A stretch of 36,896 bases of DNA from Deltaproteobacteria bacterium (lineage in GTDB: Bacteria; Myxococcota; JACRCW01). The DNA is taken from assembly GCA_016218805.1 (NCBI GenBank), contig JACRCW010000124.1:1-36896 (forward strand), in the 5' to 3' direction. The notes beneath the pieces were generated by a model, which saw nothing but the letters and a program-made list of their open reading frames with translations, searched no databases and was not told the DNA's origin. This document shows positions 4,969 to 12,529 of the stretch, piece after piece. A program made the position numbers and the translations under genes. How positions within the stretch are numbered: position 1 is the first letter of the stretch; each line of letters begins with the position of its first letter.

Positions 4969-7900
4969 ATGACGCGCTCGACGAGGCTTGTTCCGCTGCT
5001 CCTGCTGGCTACCCAGGCGTGCAACTGCGACGACACTCTGACCGATGCCCCGGCGCCGGAGATTGTGGTTGCGGACGAGGACGGCACCGAGGCCGGCGGC
5101 CAGCCACCGCTCATCATTGAGTTTGGTGACGTGGAGATTGGCCAGCGCGTGGCGCACAAGGTGCGCATCCGCAACACCGGCAAGGCTCCGCTGGCGCTCA
5201 CCCGTGCGGCGCCGCTGGTGGATCCGGCGGACACCGTCTGCCCGGTGTCGTCCGCGGAGTTTGCCTACCCGCCGCTGTCTTCCAGCCAGGGCGTGGAGGT
5301 GGGGCCCAGCGGGGAGAAGCTGATTGAGGTGGCCTACCGGCCGCAGGACGGCGGCGGTGACTGCGCCATCATGCAGATCCTCTCCAATGACGGGGACGAA
5401 CCCGAGACGCGCGTCTACTTCCGCGCGCGCGGGTCAGCCGCGCGGTTCTGCGCGCAGGATCCGTCGCTGGACTTTGGGGACGTGGTCATTGGCCAGCAGA
5501 AGGACCTGCCCACCAAGGTGACCAACTGCGGCATCCGCACGCTGACCATCACCGCGGTGCGGGCCACCAGCTCATTCCCGCCGTTTGAGCTGCTTACGCC
5601 CGTCACCACGCCGCGCGCGCTGCAGCCGGGCGAAGAGATCCCGTTGGACTTCCGCTTCGCGCCCGTGGAGGCGCGGCGCTACGGGGGCCTGGGCGCCACG
5701 GCGGACCCGGGCGTGCTGGTGTTTGAGACGACGGAGGCGGGCGTGGGTTCGCTCACGCTGCTGGGGCGCGGTGTGACCCCGCCGGAGTGTCACCTTGTGG
5801 TGGCGCCCACGGCCATCAACTTTGGCCAGGTGGCGGTGGGCGCCTCCGCCACGCGGGACGTGCTCATCAGCAACAGCGGGGATGCGCCGTGCACGGTGGA
5901 TTCCATCTCCCGCATCTCCGGCTCCACGGACTTCTCCGTCACCGCCGGCGCGGCGCCGCCCGCCGTCACCGTGGCACCCGCGCAGGTGCAGGCCTTCACC
6001 ATCACGCTGGCACCCGCCGCGGCGGGCCTGCTCAACGCGGTGTTCCGCGTGACCAGTTCCACCACGGGCATGGATTACGACGTGAACGTGGAGGCCAACC
6101 AGCCGCCGCCGCAGGGGTGTGCGCTGGAGCCGGACCCCGCGTTCCTGAACTTTGGCACCGTGCCCATGGGGCGGGTGAACTCGCTGCCGGTGGTGCTGCG
6201 CTCCGTGGGCACCGAGGACTGCTCCGTCAAGCAGATCACCTTCCCGGCGGGGAGCCCGGAGTTCAGCACGTCCACCACCGTGCTCCCGCTCATTGGCCTG
6301 ATGGTGCCGTCCGGTGAGTCCACCAACGTCAACGTGGATTTCCGCGCGGCCAGCCCCGGGCCGCGCAGCGGGCGCATGCAGATCAAGTACGGCGAGCTGG
6401 GGTTTGGCGGCACCACCACGACGCTGAACGTGGACCTGGCCGGCAACGCCCAGGCGCCGACGTTGTGCGTGGATCCACAGGAGCTGGACTTTGGCTCCGT
6501 CCCGGTGGGGACCGAGGTGCGCCGCAGCGTGTCACTGCAAAGCTGCGGGGCCACGGAGCTCACCCTGCGCGGCGTGCAGATTGCCTCCGGGAGCAGCCCC
6601 GCGTTTGACGTACCTACGCCCCCCGCGCTGCCCGCCACCGTGCAGCCCGGCAGCGCCGTGACCGTGGAGGTCCGCTACAAGCCCACCACCGCCGCCGGAG
6701 ACCTGGGCATCCTGCAGGTGATGTCGGATGACCCCAACCTCGCCGTGGCGCCTGTGCGGCTCAAGGGCAATGCGGCCGGGCTGTGCCCGCCGCTGATGGT
6801 GTGCTCGCCCGATACGTTGGAGTTTGGCAACGTGCAGGTGGGCTTCCCGCAGACCATGGCCGTGGTGTGCCGCAACTACGGCACCCAGACGGTGACGGTG
6901 ACCTCCGCGTCCATTGCGCCCAGCCCGCCGTGGGCGCAGGCGTCCATGCTGCCGCGGTCCCTGGCGGTGGGGGATGCGCTGACCGTGCAGGTGACCCTGA
7001 CGCCGCTGACCACGGGCGCGTACTCCGGCACGCTGACGGTGAACTCCAACGCGTGTGCCAGCGCGCAGCAGGTGCAGCTCACCGCCACCGGCATCCCGCC
7101 GCTCATCCCCACCTGCACCCCGCCGGCGTCCTTCACCCCGCGCGAGGAATGGGCGTGGACCACCTCCACGGTGCACCCGCAGAAGGACCAGGTGTGGATG
7201 ACGCCGCTGGTGGTGAACCTCACGGATGACAACGGTGATGGCGCGGTGACCGCGGAGGACATCCCGGACGTGGTGTTCACGTCCTTTGACGGGCGGGACT
7301 TCAAGACCAACCCGCAGGATCCGGACATCATGGCGCCCATCAAGGCGGTGGTGCGCGCGGTCAGCGGTGATGACGGCCGCGAGCTGTGGACCGCCGGAGC
7401 CGAAGAACACATGGTGCAGAGCGAGGCCAACCTGGCCGCCGGTGACATTGACGGCGACAACCTGCCGGAGATCATTGGCAGCAAGTACGTGCTGCTGCCC
7501 GGGGAATCCATCATTCCCGACGGTCCCAAGGTGATGGGGCGGTTTGTGCGCGGCCGGCTCATCTGTTTTGACAGCCGCGGGGGCTTCAAGTGGGAGAGCG
7601 ACGAGTGGACCGCCAGCAAGGACGAGATGGAGGACAGCGGCGCGCCCGCCATTGCGGACCTGGACGGGGACGGGTTTGCGGAGGTCATCTGGCGCAACCA
7701 CGTGTTTGACGCTGCGGGTCACCTCAAGTGGGCGGGGACCGCGCGGTCCGGCTCCGCCGGGCACGGGGCGTTTTCGTTCCCGGTGGACCTCAACGGGGAC
7801 GGCACGCTGGAGGTGAGTGCCGGGTTCACGGCGTACCGCGCGGACGGGTCCATCCTGTGGAACCGGACGGACGTGCAGTTTGACGGCCTCCCCGCGGTGG

Positions 7901-8607
7901 CGGACTTTGAGGGTGACGGCACGCCGGAGGTGGTGGTGACCAACGGGTGGGTGCACATCCTCAACGGCGAGGACGGCACAGACGCCTACCCCACCATCAC
8001 GCTGCCGTACCCCGAAGGTGGCTGCTCGGAAGCCAACGCGTCCGACTGTGACACCCCCATCCCCACCAACGTGGCGCTGGCGGACTTTGACGGTGACGGG
8101 AAGCCGGAGATTGCAGTGGCCAACAAGAACCTGCTGCTGGTGCTGGAGGCCAACGGCACGGAGAACTGGCGCGTGGAGATTTCCGACCAGAGCGGCATGA
8201 GCGGACCGTCCGCGTTCGACTTTGAGGGTGACGGCATCTACGAGGTGGTCTACGCCGACGAGCAGCAGGTGTTCGCGCTGCGCGGGACGACGGGGCAGAA
8301 CATCTACACCTCGCCGCGGTCCAGCCGCACCATTGCCGAATACGCGACCATTGCGGACGTGGACAACGACGGGCACGCGAACATTGTGGTGGTGCAGAAC
8401 GAGCCGCTGCTGCGGCAGGTGAAGGGCATCAAGATGCTGGCCAACGCCACGGGCCAGTGGGCGGGGAGTTCGCGCATCTGGAACCAGCACGCCTACCACA
8501 TCACCAACGTCACGGAGTCCGGCCAGGTGCCGCGCGCCGAGCCCACGCACTGGCGCGGGGATGCGGCGCACAACAGCTTCCGTGCGCAGGGTCCGCGCTG
8601 CCAGTGA
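4969..8607 (+). CDS. Large surface lipoprotein: six Ig-like (choice-of-anchor D/ASH-like) domains plus an FG-GAP/VCBS-type beta-propeller
   Basis: Lipobox-like TQAC. Six xxFGxVxxG domain starts (IEFGDV, LDFGDV, INFGQV, LNFGTV, LDFGSV, LEFGNV). About eight DxDGDG-type Ca-binding loops in the C-terminal half. Confidence 0.85.
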   Translation: MTRSTRLVPLLLLATQACNCDDTLTDAPAPEIVVADEDGTEAGGQPPLIIEFGDVEIGQRVAHKVRIRNTGKAPLALTRAAPLVDPADTVCPVSSAEFAYPPLSSSQGVEVGPSGEKLIEVAYRPQDGGGDCAIMQILSNDGDEPETRVYFRARGSAARFCAQDPSLDFGDVVIGQQKDLPTKVTNCGIRTLTITAVRATSSFPPFELLTPVTTPRALQPGEEIPLDFRFAPVEARRYGGLGATADPGVLVFETTEAGVGSLTLLGRGVTPPECHLVVAPTAINFGQVAVGASATRDVLISNSGDAPCTVDSISRISGSTDFSVTAGAAPPAVTVAPAQVQAFTITLAPAAAGLLNAVFRVTSSTTGMDYDVNVEANQPPPQGCALEPDPAFLNFGTVPMGRVNSLPVVLRSVGTEDCSVKQITFPAGSPEFSTSTTVLPLIGLMVPSGESTNVNVDFRAASPGPRSGRMQIKYGELGFGGTTTTLNVDLAGNAQAPTLCVDPQELDFGSVPVGTEVRRSVSLQSCGATELTLRGVQIASGSSPAFDVPTPPALPATVQPGSAVTVEVRYKPTTAAGDLGILQVMSDDPNLAVAPVRLKGNAAGLCPPLMVCSPDTLEFGNVQVGFPQTMAVVCRNYGTQTVTVTSASIAPSPPWAQASMLPRSLAVGDALTVQVTLTPLTTGAYSGTLTVNSNACASAQQVQLTATGIPPLIPTCTPPASFTPREEWAWTTSTVHPQKDQVWMTPLVVNLTDDNGDGAVTAEDIPDVVFTSFDGRDFKTNPQDPDIMAPIKAVVRAVSGDDGRELWTAGAEEHMVQSEANLAAGDIDGDNLPEIIGSKYVLLPGESIIPDGPKVMGRFVRGRLICFDSRGGFKWESDEWTASKDEMEDSGAPAIADLDGDGFAEVIWRNHVFDAAGHLKWAGTARSGSAGHGAFSFPVDLNGDGTLEVSAGFTAYRADGSILWNRTDVQFDGLPAVADFEGDGTPEVVVTNGWVHILNGEDGTDAYPTITLPYPEGGCSEANASDCDTPIPTNVALADFDGDGKPEIAVANKNLLLVLEANGTENWRVEISDQSGMSGPSAFDFEGDGIYEVVYADEQQVFALRGTTGQNIYTSPRSSRTIAEYATIADVDNDGHANIVVVQNEPLLRQVKGIKMLANATGQWAGSSRIWNQHAYHITNVTESGQVPRAEPTHWRGDAAHNSFRAQGPRCQ

Positions 8608-8618
8608 AGCCCGCGCCC

Positions 8619-8651
8619 GGTATTGCGCAGTGCAGAACCAGGTAATACCCT
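8619..8651 (+). promoter_or_regulatory. Putative TA promoter with overlapping inverted-repeat operator
   Basis: TTGCGC (8623-8628), 17 bp, TACCCT (8646-8651). GGTATTGC (8619-8626) and GTAATACC (8642-8649) form a 7/8 inverted repeat. Confidence 0.55.
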
Positions 8652-8658
8652 CCCCGGC

Positions 8659-8916
8659 ATGGTGACCCTGAGCGTGAAGGTGCCCGAGTCCCTGCGGGAA
8701 CTCCTGGACGAGATGGTGCGCCGGACCGGCAAGACCCAGTCGACGCTCATCCGTGAGGCGCTGGAGCAGTTGGGTTCCCGCCGGCGCGGCGCACGGCGCC
8801 GGCAGCCCTCGCTGCTGGCGCGTACCCGCCACCTGTGCGGCGTCCTGCAGAGCGGACGAACTGACCTGGCGTCCAACCCCGAGCACCTGGAGGGTTTCGG
8901 GCAGTGGAAGCGGTGA
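8659..8916 (+). CDS. Ribbon-helix-helix (CopG-like) antitoxin
   Basis: MVTLSVKVPESLRELLDEMVRRTGKTQSTLIREAL fits the RHH pattern, and the ORF overlaps the downstream PIN gene. Confidence 0.85.
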   Translation: MVTLSVKVPESLRELLDEMVRRTGKTQSTLIREALEQLGSRRRGARRRQPSLLARTRHLCGVLQSGRTDLASNPEHLEGFGQWKR

Positions 8917-9320
8917 TCATGGACGCGGGTCCGCTGGTCGCCTTCTTGGACCGGAGCGAACGGCACCACGCGTGGGTCACCCAGGCGTGGGACGTTCTGG
9001 GCCCCCGGGTTATCACCTGCGAGGCAGCGCTGGCCGAGGCCGCGTATCTCGTCGGGCGCATCCCAGGCGGCGCGGAACGCCTTGATGAATTGCTGGCAAC
9101 GGGAGGCTTTCGGATTGAGTTTGACCTGGCCGGTACCCTCGGGGAGGTGTTGTCGCTGCGTCGCCGCTTCCGGTCGGTGCCCATGTCGCTTGCGGATGCG
9201 TGCCTGGTCCGGATGGCCGAACTGCATGGTTCATCGTCGGTGATGACCCTGGACCGCGATTTCCTCGTCTACCGGAAGAACGGGCGGGGGCGGATTCCGC
9301 TCATTGCGCCGTTTGTGTGA
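8904..9320 (+). CDS. PIN-domain (VapC-family) toxin
   Basis: IMDAGPLVA, EAALAEA, MSLADAC and TLDRDF supply the acidic PIN residues. Confidence 0.9.
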   Translation: MEAVIMDAGPLVAFLDRSERHHAWVTQAWDVLGPRVITCEAALAEAAYLVGRIPGGAERLDELLATGGFRIEFDLAGTLGEVLSLRRRFRSVPMSLADACLVRMAELHGSSSVMTLDRDFLVYRKNGRGRIPLIAPFV

Positions 9321-9329
9321 ACGCACGCG

Positions 9330-10016
9330 CTACTTCTTCATTTCGCCGGTGATGGTGTTCTCCAGCGGGAGGATCTCCAGGCCGGCCCACGGGTCATCCT
9401 TGACGGGGATCATCAGTTTCCCCTGCTTCTCCTTCTCCTGCGCCACCTCTTCCAGCTTCTCCAAGGTGGCGGGGATGCCGTGGCGGGTGGCCCACTGCAT
9501 GACAAAGACGGGGATGTACCCGCCGGGGTTGAGTGCGGCGCGGTAGGTGGCGCGCGAGCGCTTGCCTCCGGGGAGCGCCTCCACGATCCAAAAGCCCTCA
9601 TAGACGGGCGGGCGGACGTGCCCGGCGCGCACGCCGAGTCCCGGCTCCTGGGTGAGCTTCCACTCCATGCGGAAGGTGCCGGTGCCGGCCTCATCCAGGT
9701 CCGTGGGAATGACGCGTTCCAGGACGACGTCACGCGGGCTGAGGAGCGGGTACTTGCTGATGGAGTAGTTCCAGGTGCGGTTGCCGTCCTTGCGGAACAT
9801 GCGGCAGTACTGGAGCGACCGCGACATGTTCTTGTCCTGGCACTGGCGCAGGATGGCGTGGCGCGCGGCCAGCGCGGAGGCCTCAATGGTGGCGGAGGCT
9901 TCCAGGGCAAACGTGTTGGGGCGGTTGGTCTCCTGCGCGGAGACGCGCACCTCCGAGATGGCGAGTGCGGGCGCGGAAGCCAGCAGGAGGAGGACGGGCA
10001 GGGCGCGGCGCAGCAT
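9330..10016 (-). CDS. Secreted START/SRPBCC-domain protein
   Basis: Signal peptide ending ALA, plus START-like motifs PLLSPRDVVL, EGFWIVE and NPGGYIPVFV. Confidence 0.7.
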   Translation of the reverse strand: MLRRALPVLLLLASAPALAISEVRVSAQETNRPNTFALEASATIEASALAARHAILRQCQDKNMSRSLQYCRMFRKDGNRTWNYSISKYPLLSPRDVVLERVIPTDLDEAGTGTFRMEWKLTQEPGLGVRAGHVRPPVYEGFWIVEALPGGKRSRATYRAALNPGGYIPVFVMQWATRHGIPATLEKLEEVAQEKEKQGKLMIPVKDDPWAGLEILPLENTITGEMKK

Positions 10017-10150: not shown

Positions 10151-12529
10151 CTACGCGTCCTTCACATCCCGCGCGCGCAGGGTCACCACGGCCACGCCCC
10201 CCGCGGACCGCACGGCAACGCCGAGGTGGTCATCGTCATGGGCGGGGGACCAGCGGACCTGGCGGCCGTCCCCTTCCACGGTGCCCTCCGCCTGCCAGCG
10301 GGTGGAGACTGCGTCCGGCCCGCCACACAGCTGCACCTGCACGCCGTCCTTCCCGGCCGCAAACGAGAGCCGCACGGTGGGCGGTTCGTAGAGCGGGAGG
10401 TCCCGCGTGCGCACGCCGCGGCGGGGTGCGCTGTCACGCCACTGGTCAATGCGCTGGCGGCCCGGCACCTGGATGAGGCTGCCGTGGCCGCCGTCAAACC
10501 CGGCGTCAGGCGGGAGCGGGTCCACCACCATGCCGGCATCGCGTCCCGCGTCGGGCGGGGGCGGGTCGGCCATCATGCCGGCGTCAAACCCGGCGTCCTC
10601 CGGCAGGGGGTCCACCACCATCCCGGCGTCACGTCCCGCGTCAGGTGGCGGCGGGTCCACCACCATCCCGGCGTCACGTCCCGCGTCGGGCGGCGGCGGG
10701 TCCACCACCATGCCGGAGTCACGCCCGGCGTCCTCCGGCAGCGGGTCCACCACGTTGCCGGCGTCATACCCCGCGTCCACGCCGCCATCCTGCGGGACGG
10801 GATCCACCACCATGCCGCCGTCTCCGGGGACGGGGTCATACACGCACCCGGCGCTGATGCCTTCCACCGTGCCGGCCAGCGCCAGGGACGCGCCCAGCGC
10901 AAGGCCCTGCGCCACGCCCACCAGCTGACGGCGCGGCTTGCGGGACTTGCGCGCCTCCAGCGCCACGGCCTCCATGTCCTGCTCCAGCGCGTCCATCTGC
11001 GCCTGCCAGCGGCCGTCGGCACCGGCAATGCGCAGGCCCAGCAGCGCGGTCTCCCGCTCCACCAGTTCGCGGTCGTCACCTGCCGCGGCGGCCAGCGCCA
11101 GCGCCTCTTCCAGGAAGCCCGCGGTCTCACGGGCAATGCCGCGCGTGAGTTCGCGCGCGCGTTCAGACACGCGCGCCACGCCGGGTGTGCCGGCGTGGAA
11201 GTGCGCCAGCACGGCGGCGGAGTAGCCCAGCCCCATGTAGCGGTTGGCCACGCCGTCCGGCGCAAAGTTGCGCTCGCGGAACGCCGCGGCGCAGATGCGG
11301 AACAACAGCTCCGCCTTGTCGTCAACGATGCGGTAGTTCCAACCCAGGTAGCTGCCGCCCAGTTCCTGGCGGCGGGCCAGTTCCCGCTGCAAGGGCGTGC
11401 CGTGGTACGGCTCGGCGCGGCAGAAGTTGACCGGGTGGTCGGCGTGCTCGCGCATGAACGCAATGTTCTCGCGCACGTCGTCAAGCGTGGCATCCGGTTC
11501 AAACAGCAGGATGTTGTAGCAGGCAAAGATGCCGGCCTCGCGGCAGGCGCGCAGTGCCTCGCGCACGCGGGCGGTCTGGCTGGAGCGCCGCATGTGCGTT
11601 GCGCCGGCCTGGGATGCATTCTCCACGCCCACGTACAGGCGCAGCACGCCCAGCGCGCGCAACTCGCGCGCCAGGTCCGCCGTCACGCAATCCGGGCGCG
11701 CCTTGCCAATGATGCCCACCATTCCCACCTGGCGCGCGTCCAGCGCGGCGCGGATGGCGCGCACGCGCTCCAACGTGTCCGCCGGGCGCGGGAGCAGGAA
11801 GTTGTCGTCGTGGAAGCAGTAGATGCACGGCTCCCCGGCGGCGTGCCACAGGCGCGCCATCTCGTCCGCAATGTTGGCTGGGGAGCGCAGGCGCAGCGTC
11901 TTCCCGCCGCCCTTCTCGCGCGCATCCCGGTAGAAGGACGTGATGGAGCAGTAGCTGCACCGGCCCCAGCAGCCGCGGCTGCCCATGATGGGGATGAACG
12001 GGACGTCCAGGTGGCGGTTGTGCGGGCGGTAGCGTGCCGCGTGGGGCAGCGCGTCCAGGTCCTCCACAATGGCGCGCGGAGCCGTGAGCCGTGCGGCACC
12101 GCCCGGCGCCGCCAGCGCGAGTCCGGCCACCGTGTCCAGGGGACGGCGGTCCCGCAGGGCGTCCAGCAGATTCACCAGGGTGTGCTCGCCTTCGTGCAGG
12201 ACCACGCTGTCCACGCCGTGCGCGTGGCCCAGGACCTGGTCATGCGCCAGTGTGGGGAAGTGGCCGCCGCAGGTGAGGTGGCCGCGGAACCCGGCGGCGC
12301 GCAGCCGGCGCGCCAGGCCAAGGAATTCATGCGCGCGGTGCTGGAACTGCATGGACAGGCCCACCACGTCCGGCTTCTGACGCAGGGCCAGCGTGACGAC
12401 GTCATCCACGGCGTCCGGGTCATTGAACGGCACCACGCGCACCGCGTGCCCCGCCGCGTGCACGCATGCCGCCAGCAGCCCCATCCCCAGGTTCTCCTCG
12501 AAATCCGCACCCACCAGCACGAGTTTCAT
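10151..12529 (-). CDS. B12-binding radical SAM protein (class B methyltransferase-like) with a C-terminal signal-like segment, repeat tract and small beta domain
   Basis: N-terminal cobalamin-binding Rossmann domain (ENLGMGLLAA, VVGLSM, GGHFPT). SRGCWGRCSYC is the CxxxCxxC motif. Core motifs FHDDNF, YVGVEN and EPYHGTPL. Confidence 0.92.
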   Translation of the reverse strand: MKLVLVGADFEENLGMGLLAACVHAAGHAVRVVPFNDPDAVDDVVTLALRQKPDVVGLSMQFQHRAHEFLGLARRLRAAGFRGHLTCGGHFPTLAHDQVLGHAHGVDSVVLHEGEHTLVNLLDALRDRRPLDTVAGLALAAPGGAARLTAPRAIVEDLDALPHAARYRPHNRHLDVPFIPIMGSRGCWGRCSYCSITSFYRDAREKGGGKTLRLRSPANIADEMARLWHAAGEPCIYCFHDDNFLLPRPADTLERVRAIRAALDARQVGMVGIIGKARPDCVTADLARELRALGVLRLYVGVENASQAGATHMRRSSQTARVREALRACREAGIFACYNILLFEPDATLDDVRENIAFMREHADHPVNFCRAEPYHGTPLQRELARRQELGGSYLGWNYRIVDDKAELLFRICAAAFRERNFAPDGVANRYMGLGYSAAVLAHFHAGTPGVARVSERARELTRGIARETAGFLEEALALAAAAGDDRELVERETALLGLRIAGADGRWQAQMDALEQDMEAVALEARKSRKPRRQLVGVAQGLALGASLALAGTVEGISAGCVYDPVPGDGGMVVDPVPQDGGVDAGYDAGNVVDPLPEDAGRDSGMVVDPPPPDAGRDAGMVVDPPPPDAGRDAGMVVDPLPEDAGFDAGMMADPPPPDAGRDAGMVVDPLPPDAGFDGGHGSLIQVPGRQRIDQWRDSAPRRGVRTRDLPLYEPPTVRLSFAAGKDGVQVQLCGGPDAVSTRWQAEGTVEGDGRQVRWSPAHDDDHLGVAVRSAGGVAVVTLRARDVKDA
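10487..10843 (-). repeat. Coding tandem repeat, mostly 45-bp units, giving 8 xxDP(L/V/P)P cores
   Basis: VYDPVPGDGG, MVVDPVPQDGGVDAGYDAG, NVVDPLPEDAGRDSG, MVVDPPPPDAGRDAG x2, MVVDPLPEDAGFDAG, MMADPPPPDAGRDAG, MVVDPLPPDAGFDGG. Confidence 0.95.

Follow-up and report, generated by a model that had tools for sequence, protein, structure and literature searches.

Architecture of the fused protein

The window analyzed here is the whole 36,896-nucleotide stretch of contig JACRCW010000124.1, from a Myxococcota genome assembly (GCA_016218805.1). This report concerns one of its genes, an open reading frame (ORF) at positions 10151-12529 of the minus strand, in which a predicted cobalamin-dependent radical SAM (S-adenosylmethionine) enzyme is followed by a segment resembling a lipoprotein signal, a series of repeated proline-rich cores and an immunoglobulin (Ig)-like domain. 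Its features are listed below from the N-terminus onward; structural entries refer to an AlphaFold2 (AF2) model of the whole protein built on 112 homologs, with its confidence given as the predicted local distance difference test (pLDDT).

10151-12529, minus strand: whole ORF, 792 amino acids (aa) plus stop codon (10151-10153), ATG start
12167-12496, minus strand: cobalamin-binding domain, residues 12-121 (Pfam PF02310 B12-binding, E 1.7e-17, 63.8 bits versus a cut-off of 32.1; pLDDT >90)
11468-11980, minus strand: radical SAM core, residues 184-354 (Pfam PF04055, E 2.5e-15, 57.5 bits versus a cut-off of 29.5)
11948-11971, minus strand: CxxxCxxC cluster motif, C187-x3-C191-x2-C194 (sequence and alignment)
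10952-11320, minus strand: helical C-terminal part of the enzyme, residues 404-526, with a long hairpin at 451-529 (AF2 secondary structure, pLDDT >90)
10844-10951, minus strand: internal lipoprotein-type signal, n-region R527-R534, h-region Q535-G561, Cys562 (codon 10844-10846) (sequence, alignment, AF2)
10451-10843, minus strand: repeat region, residues 563-693, eight (M/N)(V/M)(V/A)DPxPxDxG cores with DAG/DGG spacers (sequence, repeats, alignment)
10376-10450, minus strand: conserved extended segment IDQWRDSAPRRGVRTRDLPLYEPP, residues 694-718 (IDQWRD...DLPLYEPP) (alignment, AF2)
10154-10375, minus strand: Ig-like beta-sandwich domain, residues 719-792 (AF2)

A word-indexed search returned 663 relatives. 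The best 120 of these came from Myxococcota metagenome bins; they are 715-838 aa long with 46-63% identity, and 112 of them were aligned. Counts out of 112 below refer to this alignment. An artefact of assembly or gene calling was ruled out, since the same layout is common to 112 independent full-length homologs.

The enzyme module comprises residues 1-526, with pLDDT >90 over residues 1-530, and the only Pfam domains found in it are B12-binding and Radical_SAM. Within the cluster motif, C191 and C194 are invariant and C187 is conserved in at least 90% of the homologs. The nearest solved folds are OxsB, MgmA, TsrM, AprD4, CysS and TokK (Foldseek E 4e-20 to 1e-14), and a profile search of the PDB likewise ranks OxsB first by sequence (E 1.5e-12). 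Domain order and fold are like those of these class B enzymes, while identity to them is just 14-18% and none of their structures contains a signal segment or a repeat tail. No named equivalog family fits the enzyme, as all NCBIfam scores lie far below the curated cut-offs (ApyD, 89.6 bits versus 750; HpnR, 88.6 versus 650; BchE, 88.1 versus 481; HpnJ, 79.6 versus 578; rSAM_ocin_1, 63.7 versus 282). The ORF product is a predicted class B (cobalamin-dependent) radical SAM enzyme outside any named family. The commonest chemistry of class B enzymes is C-methylation of unactivated carbons, and Val and Pro are C-methylated in this way in the polytheonamide and bottromycin pathways.

Directly behind the enzyme module lies a buried segment that resembles an internal signal for lipoproteins (signal peptidase II). 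It begins at residue 527 of 792 and is hence not N-terminal, as it would be in an ordinary lipoprotein precursor. The n-region, R527-KSRKPR-R534, is basic; the stretch Q535-G561 is hydrophobic, and AF2 places a helix at 534-555. The resemblance to a signal peptidase II signal stems from the invariant Cys562 (112/112), the residue at position -1 to it (Gly in 75 homologs and Ala in 31, together 106/112), the spacing from the last K/R to the Cys (13-24 residues, mode 17, with 2-7 K/R within the preceding 15 residues) and the net acidic character of the 12 residues past the Cys in 106 of the homologs. Both lgt and lspA are present in the genome (TIGR00544, 120.9 bits; TIGR00077, 93.3 bits; both above the family cut-offs). 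A Tat signal was also considered and dropped after inspection by eye, because the n-regions carry single or separated K/R and no conserved RR-x-F-L-K.

Behind Cys562, eight DPxPxD[AGST]G cores start at D565, D576, D595, D610, D625, D640, D655 and D670, and at the DNA level the region contains a tandem repeat with a period of 45 nucleotides (6.5 copies, 10487-10778). In AF2, residues 556-691 are disordered (pLDDT about 30). Each homolog has 1-8 core copies, with at least one in all 112 and 3-8 in 110, and in 79 of them the first core begins 2-9 residues past the invariant Cys. The DPxP motif occurs 539 times in the 112 linkers, compared to 66.7 ± 7.8 times (maximum 94) in 200 composition-preserving shuffles, an eight-fold enrichment. 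Conservation extends to positions outside the search pattern: across 518 units, the frequencies are 74% for V at -2, 81% for V/A at -1, 93% for D at +5 and 80% for G at +7, with a core-to-core spacing of 10-35 (mode 14-15). In distant homologs, GGT/GGS-type spacers replace the DAG type and the core is retained. Among the 8.9 million residues of six-frame ORFs in the genome, DPxPxD[AGST]G has nine matches, eight of which lie in this ORF, whereas DAG/DSG-rich tethers recur after the lipobox Cys of other lipoproteins (contig positions C14:13841-15481 and C165:19275-21071). The core motif is therefore specific to the family and the spacers are generic.

The tail ends in two conserved parts. In the extended segment 694-718, which lacks regular secondary structure (pLDDT 61-95), R707 does not vary and D695, W697 and D699 hardly do. 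AF2 builds residues 719-785 as a seven-strand beta sandwich (pLDDT ≥95), and a separate AF2 model of residues 690-792 (57 sequences) gave the same seven-strand fold with a mean pLDDT of 89.6. Fold searches with this domain returned generic Ig/PKD/FN3 matches only (VIA Z ≤7.3, Foldseek E ≥0.013) and no functional lead. Pfam and NCBIfam contain no family matching the tail or the six split lipoproteins searched (see below), and in the ESM Atlas the best scores, 0.88 for the tail and 0.76 for one split lipoprotein, were below the useful range. A profile-free scan of residues 700-792 against 1.84 billion representatives yielded 136 matches, and the domain is C-terminal in every one. The short matches begin inside the enzyme, signal or repeats and resemble contig-edge fragments; no clear stand-alone gene for the tail of this clade was found among the 136.

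A preliminary description of this DNA, made from its letters and ORFs, had reported a cobalamin-binding radical SAM module of ~520 aa with a CxxxCxxC motif, followed by basic residues, a hydrophobic stretch and a lipobox-like Cys562, eight near-identical cores with DAG/DGG spacers and a beta-rich end domain. The domain matches with conserved C187/C191/C194, the invariant Cys, the eight cores from D565 to D670 and the beta sandwich at 719-785 bear out each of these elements.

Fused and split forms across the phylum

We surveyed 401 genomes of the phylum with a match threshold of E ≤1e-40, which left 29 genomes. Members of the wider superfamily occur in 27 of the 401, and the 29 are distributed as follows.

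2 genomes (G000, the window's own, and G002): this fused type, with a tail of VVDPxPxDxG repeats and an Ig-like domain
14 genomes: enzyme without a tail, 545-604 aa, 34-40% identical
8 genomes: fused clade with different repeats, HDxGVAEAAPPPY (3-5 copies in complete tails)
1 genome (G018): two EDVGxPPxDD units, end domain absent
1 genome (G162): two paralogs without the Cys, their hydrophobic segment running straight into AAVVDP or AVATEP
2 genomes: basal, no tail; no such lipoprotein neighbour in the one checked (G165)
1 genome: cut by a contig end, tail not assignable

The tail-less enzymes have a partner. In 14 of 14 evaluable genomes, one or two genes for a lipoprotein precursor lie directly behind the enzyme gene on the same strand, overlapping its stop codon or starting within a few bases of it, and encode products of 165-245 aa. 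These precursors consist of a long conserved n-region (...RxRV(L/I)xH(L/M)(R/K)), an h-region, a lipobox Cys, a core and a beta-rich domain. Their core is single, lies 1-8 residues past the lipobox Cys and typically reads P(F/Y)xVVDPLPPPxxC; its second invariant Cys, just after the core, is missing from the fused family. No further conserved gene is present in the split cassettes. Since the tail-less enzyme has no membrane segment and its partner bears a cleavable-type N-terminal signal, the predicted soluble cytoplasmic enzyme and its exported partner can meet only before export. Given these split pairs and the fused clades with an acidic-xx-PP(P) motif at the signal's end, enzyme and putatively exported core-bearing lipoprotein are linked across the whole superfamily.

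In a maximum likelihood tree of the enzyme (first 520 residues, 37 rows, LG+C20), 31 of the 37 rows, comprising all fused and split forms, fall into one clade (support 98/93). The fused clade described here (100/100) stands on one side of its first fork, and on the opposite side (89/87) the split clade (99/96) groups with the other fused clades. Because fused forms occur on both sides of this fork, the topology suggests one fission instead of two fusions; the node is not strongly supported.

Several of these relatives have features of their own. The split lipoproteins (e.g. L052:10883-11521, L055:10946-11443 and L033:875-1591) have an unusually long n-region, with 35-40 residues before the h-region and the motif KKLMPE(I/V)LPxP...RxRVLxHL(R/K). 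This n-region may dock on the conserved C-terminal ...ATPLQ(K/R)G end of the enzyme. In the sister fused clade, represented by loci L031, L032, L041, L042, L043 and L044 (genomes G397, G267, G382, G127, G084 and G378), HDxGVAEAAPPPY(D/R) is repeated 3-5 times, the end domain is a different beta-rich one, and the first repeat again follows a lipobox-like Cys. The two fused G162 paralogs (L025 and L050) have duplicated ~100-aa domains with SEMAP motifs after the hydrophobic segment, which in one of them ends in ...GLPIAA followed by VVDPKAE, by eye like a signal peptidase I site.

Proposed modification before export

A cytoplasmic enzyme acting on a precursor with a signal peptidase II signal is a principle already known from DAG-RiPPs, hybrids of RiPPs (peptides made by the ribosome and modified after translation) and lipoproteins exemplified by DybA/DybH (PNAS, in print since March 2026; PMC13056109). 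In that study, the cytosolic enzyme DybH was found experimentally to modify DybA, which bears a signal peptidase II signal, DybA is afterwards triacylated via Lgt, LspA and Lnt, and its invariant Cys is accounted for by the lipobox (PMC13056109).

For the fused protein described here, we consider it probable, if only by a modest measure, that the tethered enzyme modifies its own tail in the cytoplasm before Sec, Lgt and LspA mature it, which would make it a radical-SAM, enzyme-fused variant of the DAG-RiPPs. Because the split enzyme and its exported partner would meet only before export, the readings of the tail as a plain anchor or a sensor are removed for the superfamily, and with these removed, modification before export would be the most economical explanation remaining. 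No alternative candidate substrate emerged either: the neighbourhoods of ten fused loci are not conserved.

We propose that the enzyme first folds in the cytoplasm, where it also acquires a 4Fe-4S cluster and cobalamin. While the tail is being made, and before it engages Sec, the tethered enzyme would modify the hydrophobic-hydrophobic-D-P-x-P cores, which lie 35-170 residues from its last helix; the chemistry could be C-methylation at an unactivated carbon in Val, Pro or Asp, or another class B reaction. Methylation is put forward as a guess. The internal signal could next engage Sec, whereupon Lgt would lipidate Cys562 and LspA would cut between G561 and C562. The enzyme would thereby be retained at the inner membrane on the signal helix, and the modified lipoprotein, whose acidic polyproline tether would link a lipid anchor to the Ig-like head, would be released to the periplasm or outer membrane.

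More tentatively, and with rather more doubt than belief, we suggest that the ORF is a one-gene maturation unit in which the signal peptide serves as tether, leader and cleavage site at once. Each enzyme would then modify its own eight cores ahead of their export, probably by C-methylation, and LspA would act as the 'leader protease' that separates enzyme and product. The product would be a polyproline rod modified by radical SAM chemistry, lipid-anchored in the myxobacterial envelope and capped by an Ig-like head. If true, the RiPP-lipoprotein hybrids would gain their first radical SAM member, and for the first time an enzyme would be seen joined to its substrate via an internal lipoprotein signal.

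Two further observations concern the cores. The repeat region (10451-10843, minus strand) is rich in DPP, PPP and PPD triplets, which are among the strongest ribosome stalling motifs that depend on elongation factor P (EF-P). Slow translation at these triplets might prolong the stay of the tail near the enzyme before export. In addition, only one other coding-like ORF of the genome (C93:6909-8984, minus strand) has a core-like motif right after its lipobox (...LSALAAC-AFMDPPPPEPP); by eye its product is a serine-hydrolase or beta-lactamase-like protein with C-terminal transmembrane segments, and it may be a substrate in trans or carry the motif by chance.

Weighing the alternatives

Several observations weigh against modification of the tail before export. 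The lipobox-like pattern that we used, modelled on PROSITE PS51257, is satisfied in 69 of the 112 homologs and fails in 43, including this protein (E556 lies in the excluded stretch), and the Cys is missing from both G162 paralogs and from G267. We are aware of no experiment in which LspA cut a signal lying behind 526 residues. On the side of the enzyme, the peptide-modifying families of NCBIfam (ApyD, rSAM_ocin_1) score no better than lipid or tetrapyrrole ones (HpnR, BchE), and a RiPP recognition element did not turn up. The AF2 model puts the repeats outside the active site and disordered. A co-fold of the enzyme (1-532) with six repeats (600-692), 4Fe-4S and SAM gave no answer (score 0.00) and has no bearing on binding either way. 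Between the Ig-like domain and the corresponding domain of the split lipoproteins (G281), similarity is too weak to claim homology (hhalign E 0.0021, probability 13%; BLASTP not significant). Finally, co-translational targeting would leave the tail little cytoplasmic exposure; the objection that a signal-bearing tail escapes a cytoplasmic enzyme is answered by the DybH/DybA experiment (PMC13056109).

Among the other explanations, it is unlikely that the tail is linked to the enzyme and yet unmodified, a lipoprotein that, outside the cytoplasm, would take up, carry or sense a small molecule made by the enzyme, with fusion or operon serving co-expression only. Fusion and fission prove a functional link and not its nature, and the Ig-like domain together with segment 694-718 resembles a binding module. 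A fusion through a signal peptide is, however, an awkward route to co-expression, yet it has been kept in at least three fused clades; what the clades have in common is a short motif beside the end of the signal and no pocket-forming domain, as the C-terminal domains differ; and there is no conserved transporter or pathway gene nearby. We think it quite unlikely, too, that the protein is a membrane-anchored enzyme for a lipid or small molecule, held by a plain type II anchor with a Pro-rich periplasmic spacer and an Ig-like anchor or sensor, as in TonB or an anti-sigma factor. For such an arrangement the invariant Cys (112/112) with Gly/Ala at -1 would be superfluous, and the conservation of the cores far exceeds the needs of a spacer. 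Moreover, the tail is encoded as a lipoprotein of its own, with a cleavable-type signal, in 14 of 14 tail-less relatives, and such a separate, exported protein cannot anchor or regulate a soluble enzyme after export. These points stand against the presence of the hopanoid methylase HpnR and of BchE among the best NCBIfam scores, the disorder modelled for the repeats, the Pro-rich periplasmic stretch behind the transmembrane segment of a Ser/Thr kinase of the same genome, and the G162 relatives without a Cys.

Alternatively, the enzyme could act on the precursor before export with the cores as docking motifs and the chemistry elsewhere, at the lipobox Cys, in the signal region or on spacer residues. 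The proximity of the first core to the Cys (2-9 residues in 79/112 fused homologs, 1-8 in split forms), the second invariant Cys just past the core of the split forms, and their long conserved n-region, which could dock on the enzyme, all fit this arrangement. We nevertheless regard it as distinctly unlikely: the 3-8 core copies in 110 of 112 fused members are easier to explain if every copy is a site, and the second Cys is missing from the fused family. That the tail is a generic, low-complexity myxobacterial DAG linker is highly improbable. Other lipoproteins of the genome also have DAG/DSG-rich tethers behind their lipobox Cys, but the core is nearly unique to this ORF (8/9 genome matches), exceeds shuffled expectation eight-fold, and is retained both where the spacer type changes and in the split forms.

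A generic DAG linker was also the case that the preliminary description had named as refuting its proposal, and it is contradicted by the specificity of the motif, the conserved flanks, the shuffles and the cores of the split forms. The two patterns which that description had proposed to look for were found: cores are conserved, flanks included, while copy number (1-8), spacing (10-35) and spacer type (DAG to GGT/GGS) vary, and behind each of the 14 evaluable tail-less enzymes comes a gene for a lipoprotein that bears one core. Its proposal of an in-cis multicore substrate, modified and then exported, is supported in part: it agrees with these comparative tests, except that 'multicore' is a feature of the clade, as the split forms carry one core. 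Its comparison with borosins stands as regards the fusion of enzyme and proposed substrate and fails as regards the product: the tail is a whole lipoprotein, with tether and Ig-like domain, and there is no sign of release of a small peptide.

Relation to known systems

The DAG-RiPPs offer the closest comparison. Both systems tie a cytoplasmic enzyme that has no signal of its own, here a putative modifying one, to a precursor with a signal peptidase II signal, here a lipobox-like one; the tie is a fusion in the present protein and gene adjacency in 14/14 tail-less relatives. Some DAG-RiPP substrates are whole proteins of >30 kDa, and some relatives there use signal peptidase I signals, as the G162 relatives seem to do here. 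In contrast, the enzyme there is a multinuclear non-heme iron (MNIO) enzyme and here a radical SAM enzyme; there the genes are separate, whereas here the enzyme is fused upstream of the signal, which is thereby internal; and the C-terminal CPxCGxG motif there has as its counterpart a repeated VVDPxP beside the Cys. The main text of the DAG-RiPP study describes genome mining for the MNIO family only and makes no mention of 'radical SAM', 'rSAM', 'B12' or 'fused' (PMC13056109). New here are the predicted radical SAM enzyme, its fusion to the proposed substrate via an internal signal, the repeated cores and a whole lipoprotein as the putative product. In the literature, we found no paper on a radical SAM enzyme fused to or paired with such a lipoprotein.

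Borosins include fused and split methyltransferase-precursor systems (bioRxiv 10.1101/2021.12.24.474128). They resemble the present family in having enzyme and substrate in one polypeptide, with split forms in other lineages. Borosin modification is carried out by a SAM-dependent alpha-N-methyltransferase without radical chemistry, a small peptide is released, and there is neither an export signal between enzyme and core nor a lipobox. Here, by contrast, Pfam finds no alpha-N-methyltransferase domain, and no conserved protease is encoded nearby. Other proteins recall the tail alone: LpoB-type lipoproteins have long disordered tethers, and TonB has a Pro-rich spacer. They would share with it an anchor of lipid or membrane type, a long Pro-rich stretch and a small globular head in the periplasm. 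Neither is known to be tied to a radical SAM enzyme, neither gave a match in sequence or fold, and Pfam finds nothing in the tail here.

If the proposed modification before export is true, co-option of the lipoprotein pathway, as in the DAG-RiPPs, would extend from MNIO enzymes to cobalamin radical SAM chemistry and from peptides to whole envelope proteins, with an internal signal peptide linking enzyme and substrate into a single chain. Several hundred proteins make up the family (663 database matches), none of them with an assigned function, and the two-gene split cassette, such as those at L055:9306-11443 and L051:8657-10884, provides a minimal test system. In a broader sense, a Cys that is invariant behind a hydrophobic segment within a protein may reveal a lipoprotein signal there, for which annotation pipelines are not known to look.

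Genomic neighbourhood

Across ten loci (L002 and L013-L021), the fused gene has no conserved neighbour, although gene calls based on GC content at third codon positions (GC3) are poor on L019-L021. This accords with the preliminary description, which had noted the absence of an adjoining partner gene. Likewise, no transporter or other pathway gene and no protease gene is conserved near the fused or split forms at the loci examined. The single recurring neighbour was found once only, as a homolog of window 4969-8607 (plus strand) at L015 4256-7960 (plus strand), directly upstream of the fused gene.

Within the window, the fused gene is flanked by housekeeping genes with no relation to it (UDG-family glycosylase, class II aldolase, thioesterase, and a ribbon-helix-helix (RHH)-PIN pair). 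The ORF at 4969-8607 encodes a 1212-aa lipoprotein-like protein that starts with LLLLATQACNC and contains ASH/HYDIN-type Ig domains and FG-GAP repeats. Between this FG-GAP protein and a small secreted protein sit two overlapping genes at 8623-8916 and 8904-9320 (both plus strand), a ribbon-helix-helix (CopG) and PIN-domain pair that represents a VapBC-type toxin-antitoxin module. Directly downstream of the fused gene, on the same strand, lies an ORF for a protein of 228 aa (9330-10016, minus strand) with an N-terminal signal (LLLLASAPALA) and no Pfam family, which is not conserved in the other loci. Elsewhere in the genome, a B12 radical SAM paralog (28% identical) is encoded at C165:17277-18350 (plus strand), ~1 kb upstream of the lipoprotein at C165:19275-21071 (plus strand), whose DAG-rich tether and many CxxCH-like motifs give it, by eye, the appearance of a multihaem cytochrome.

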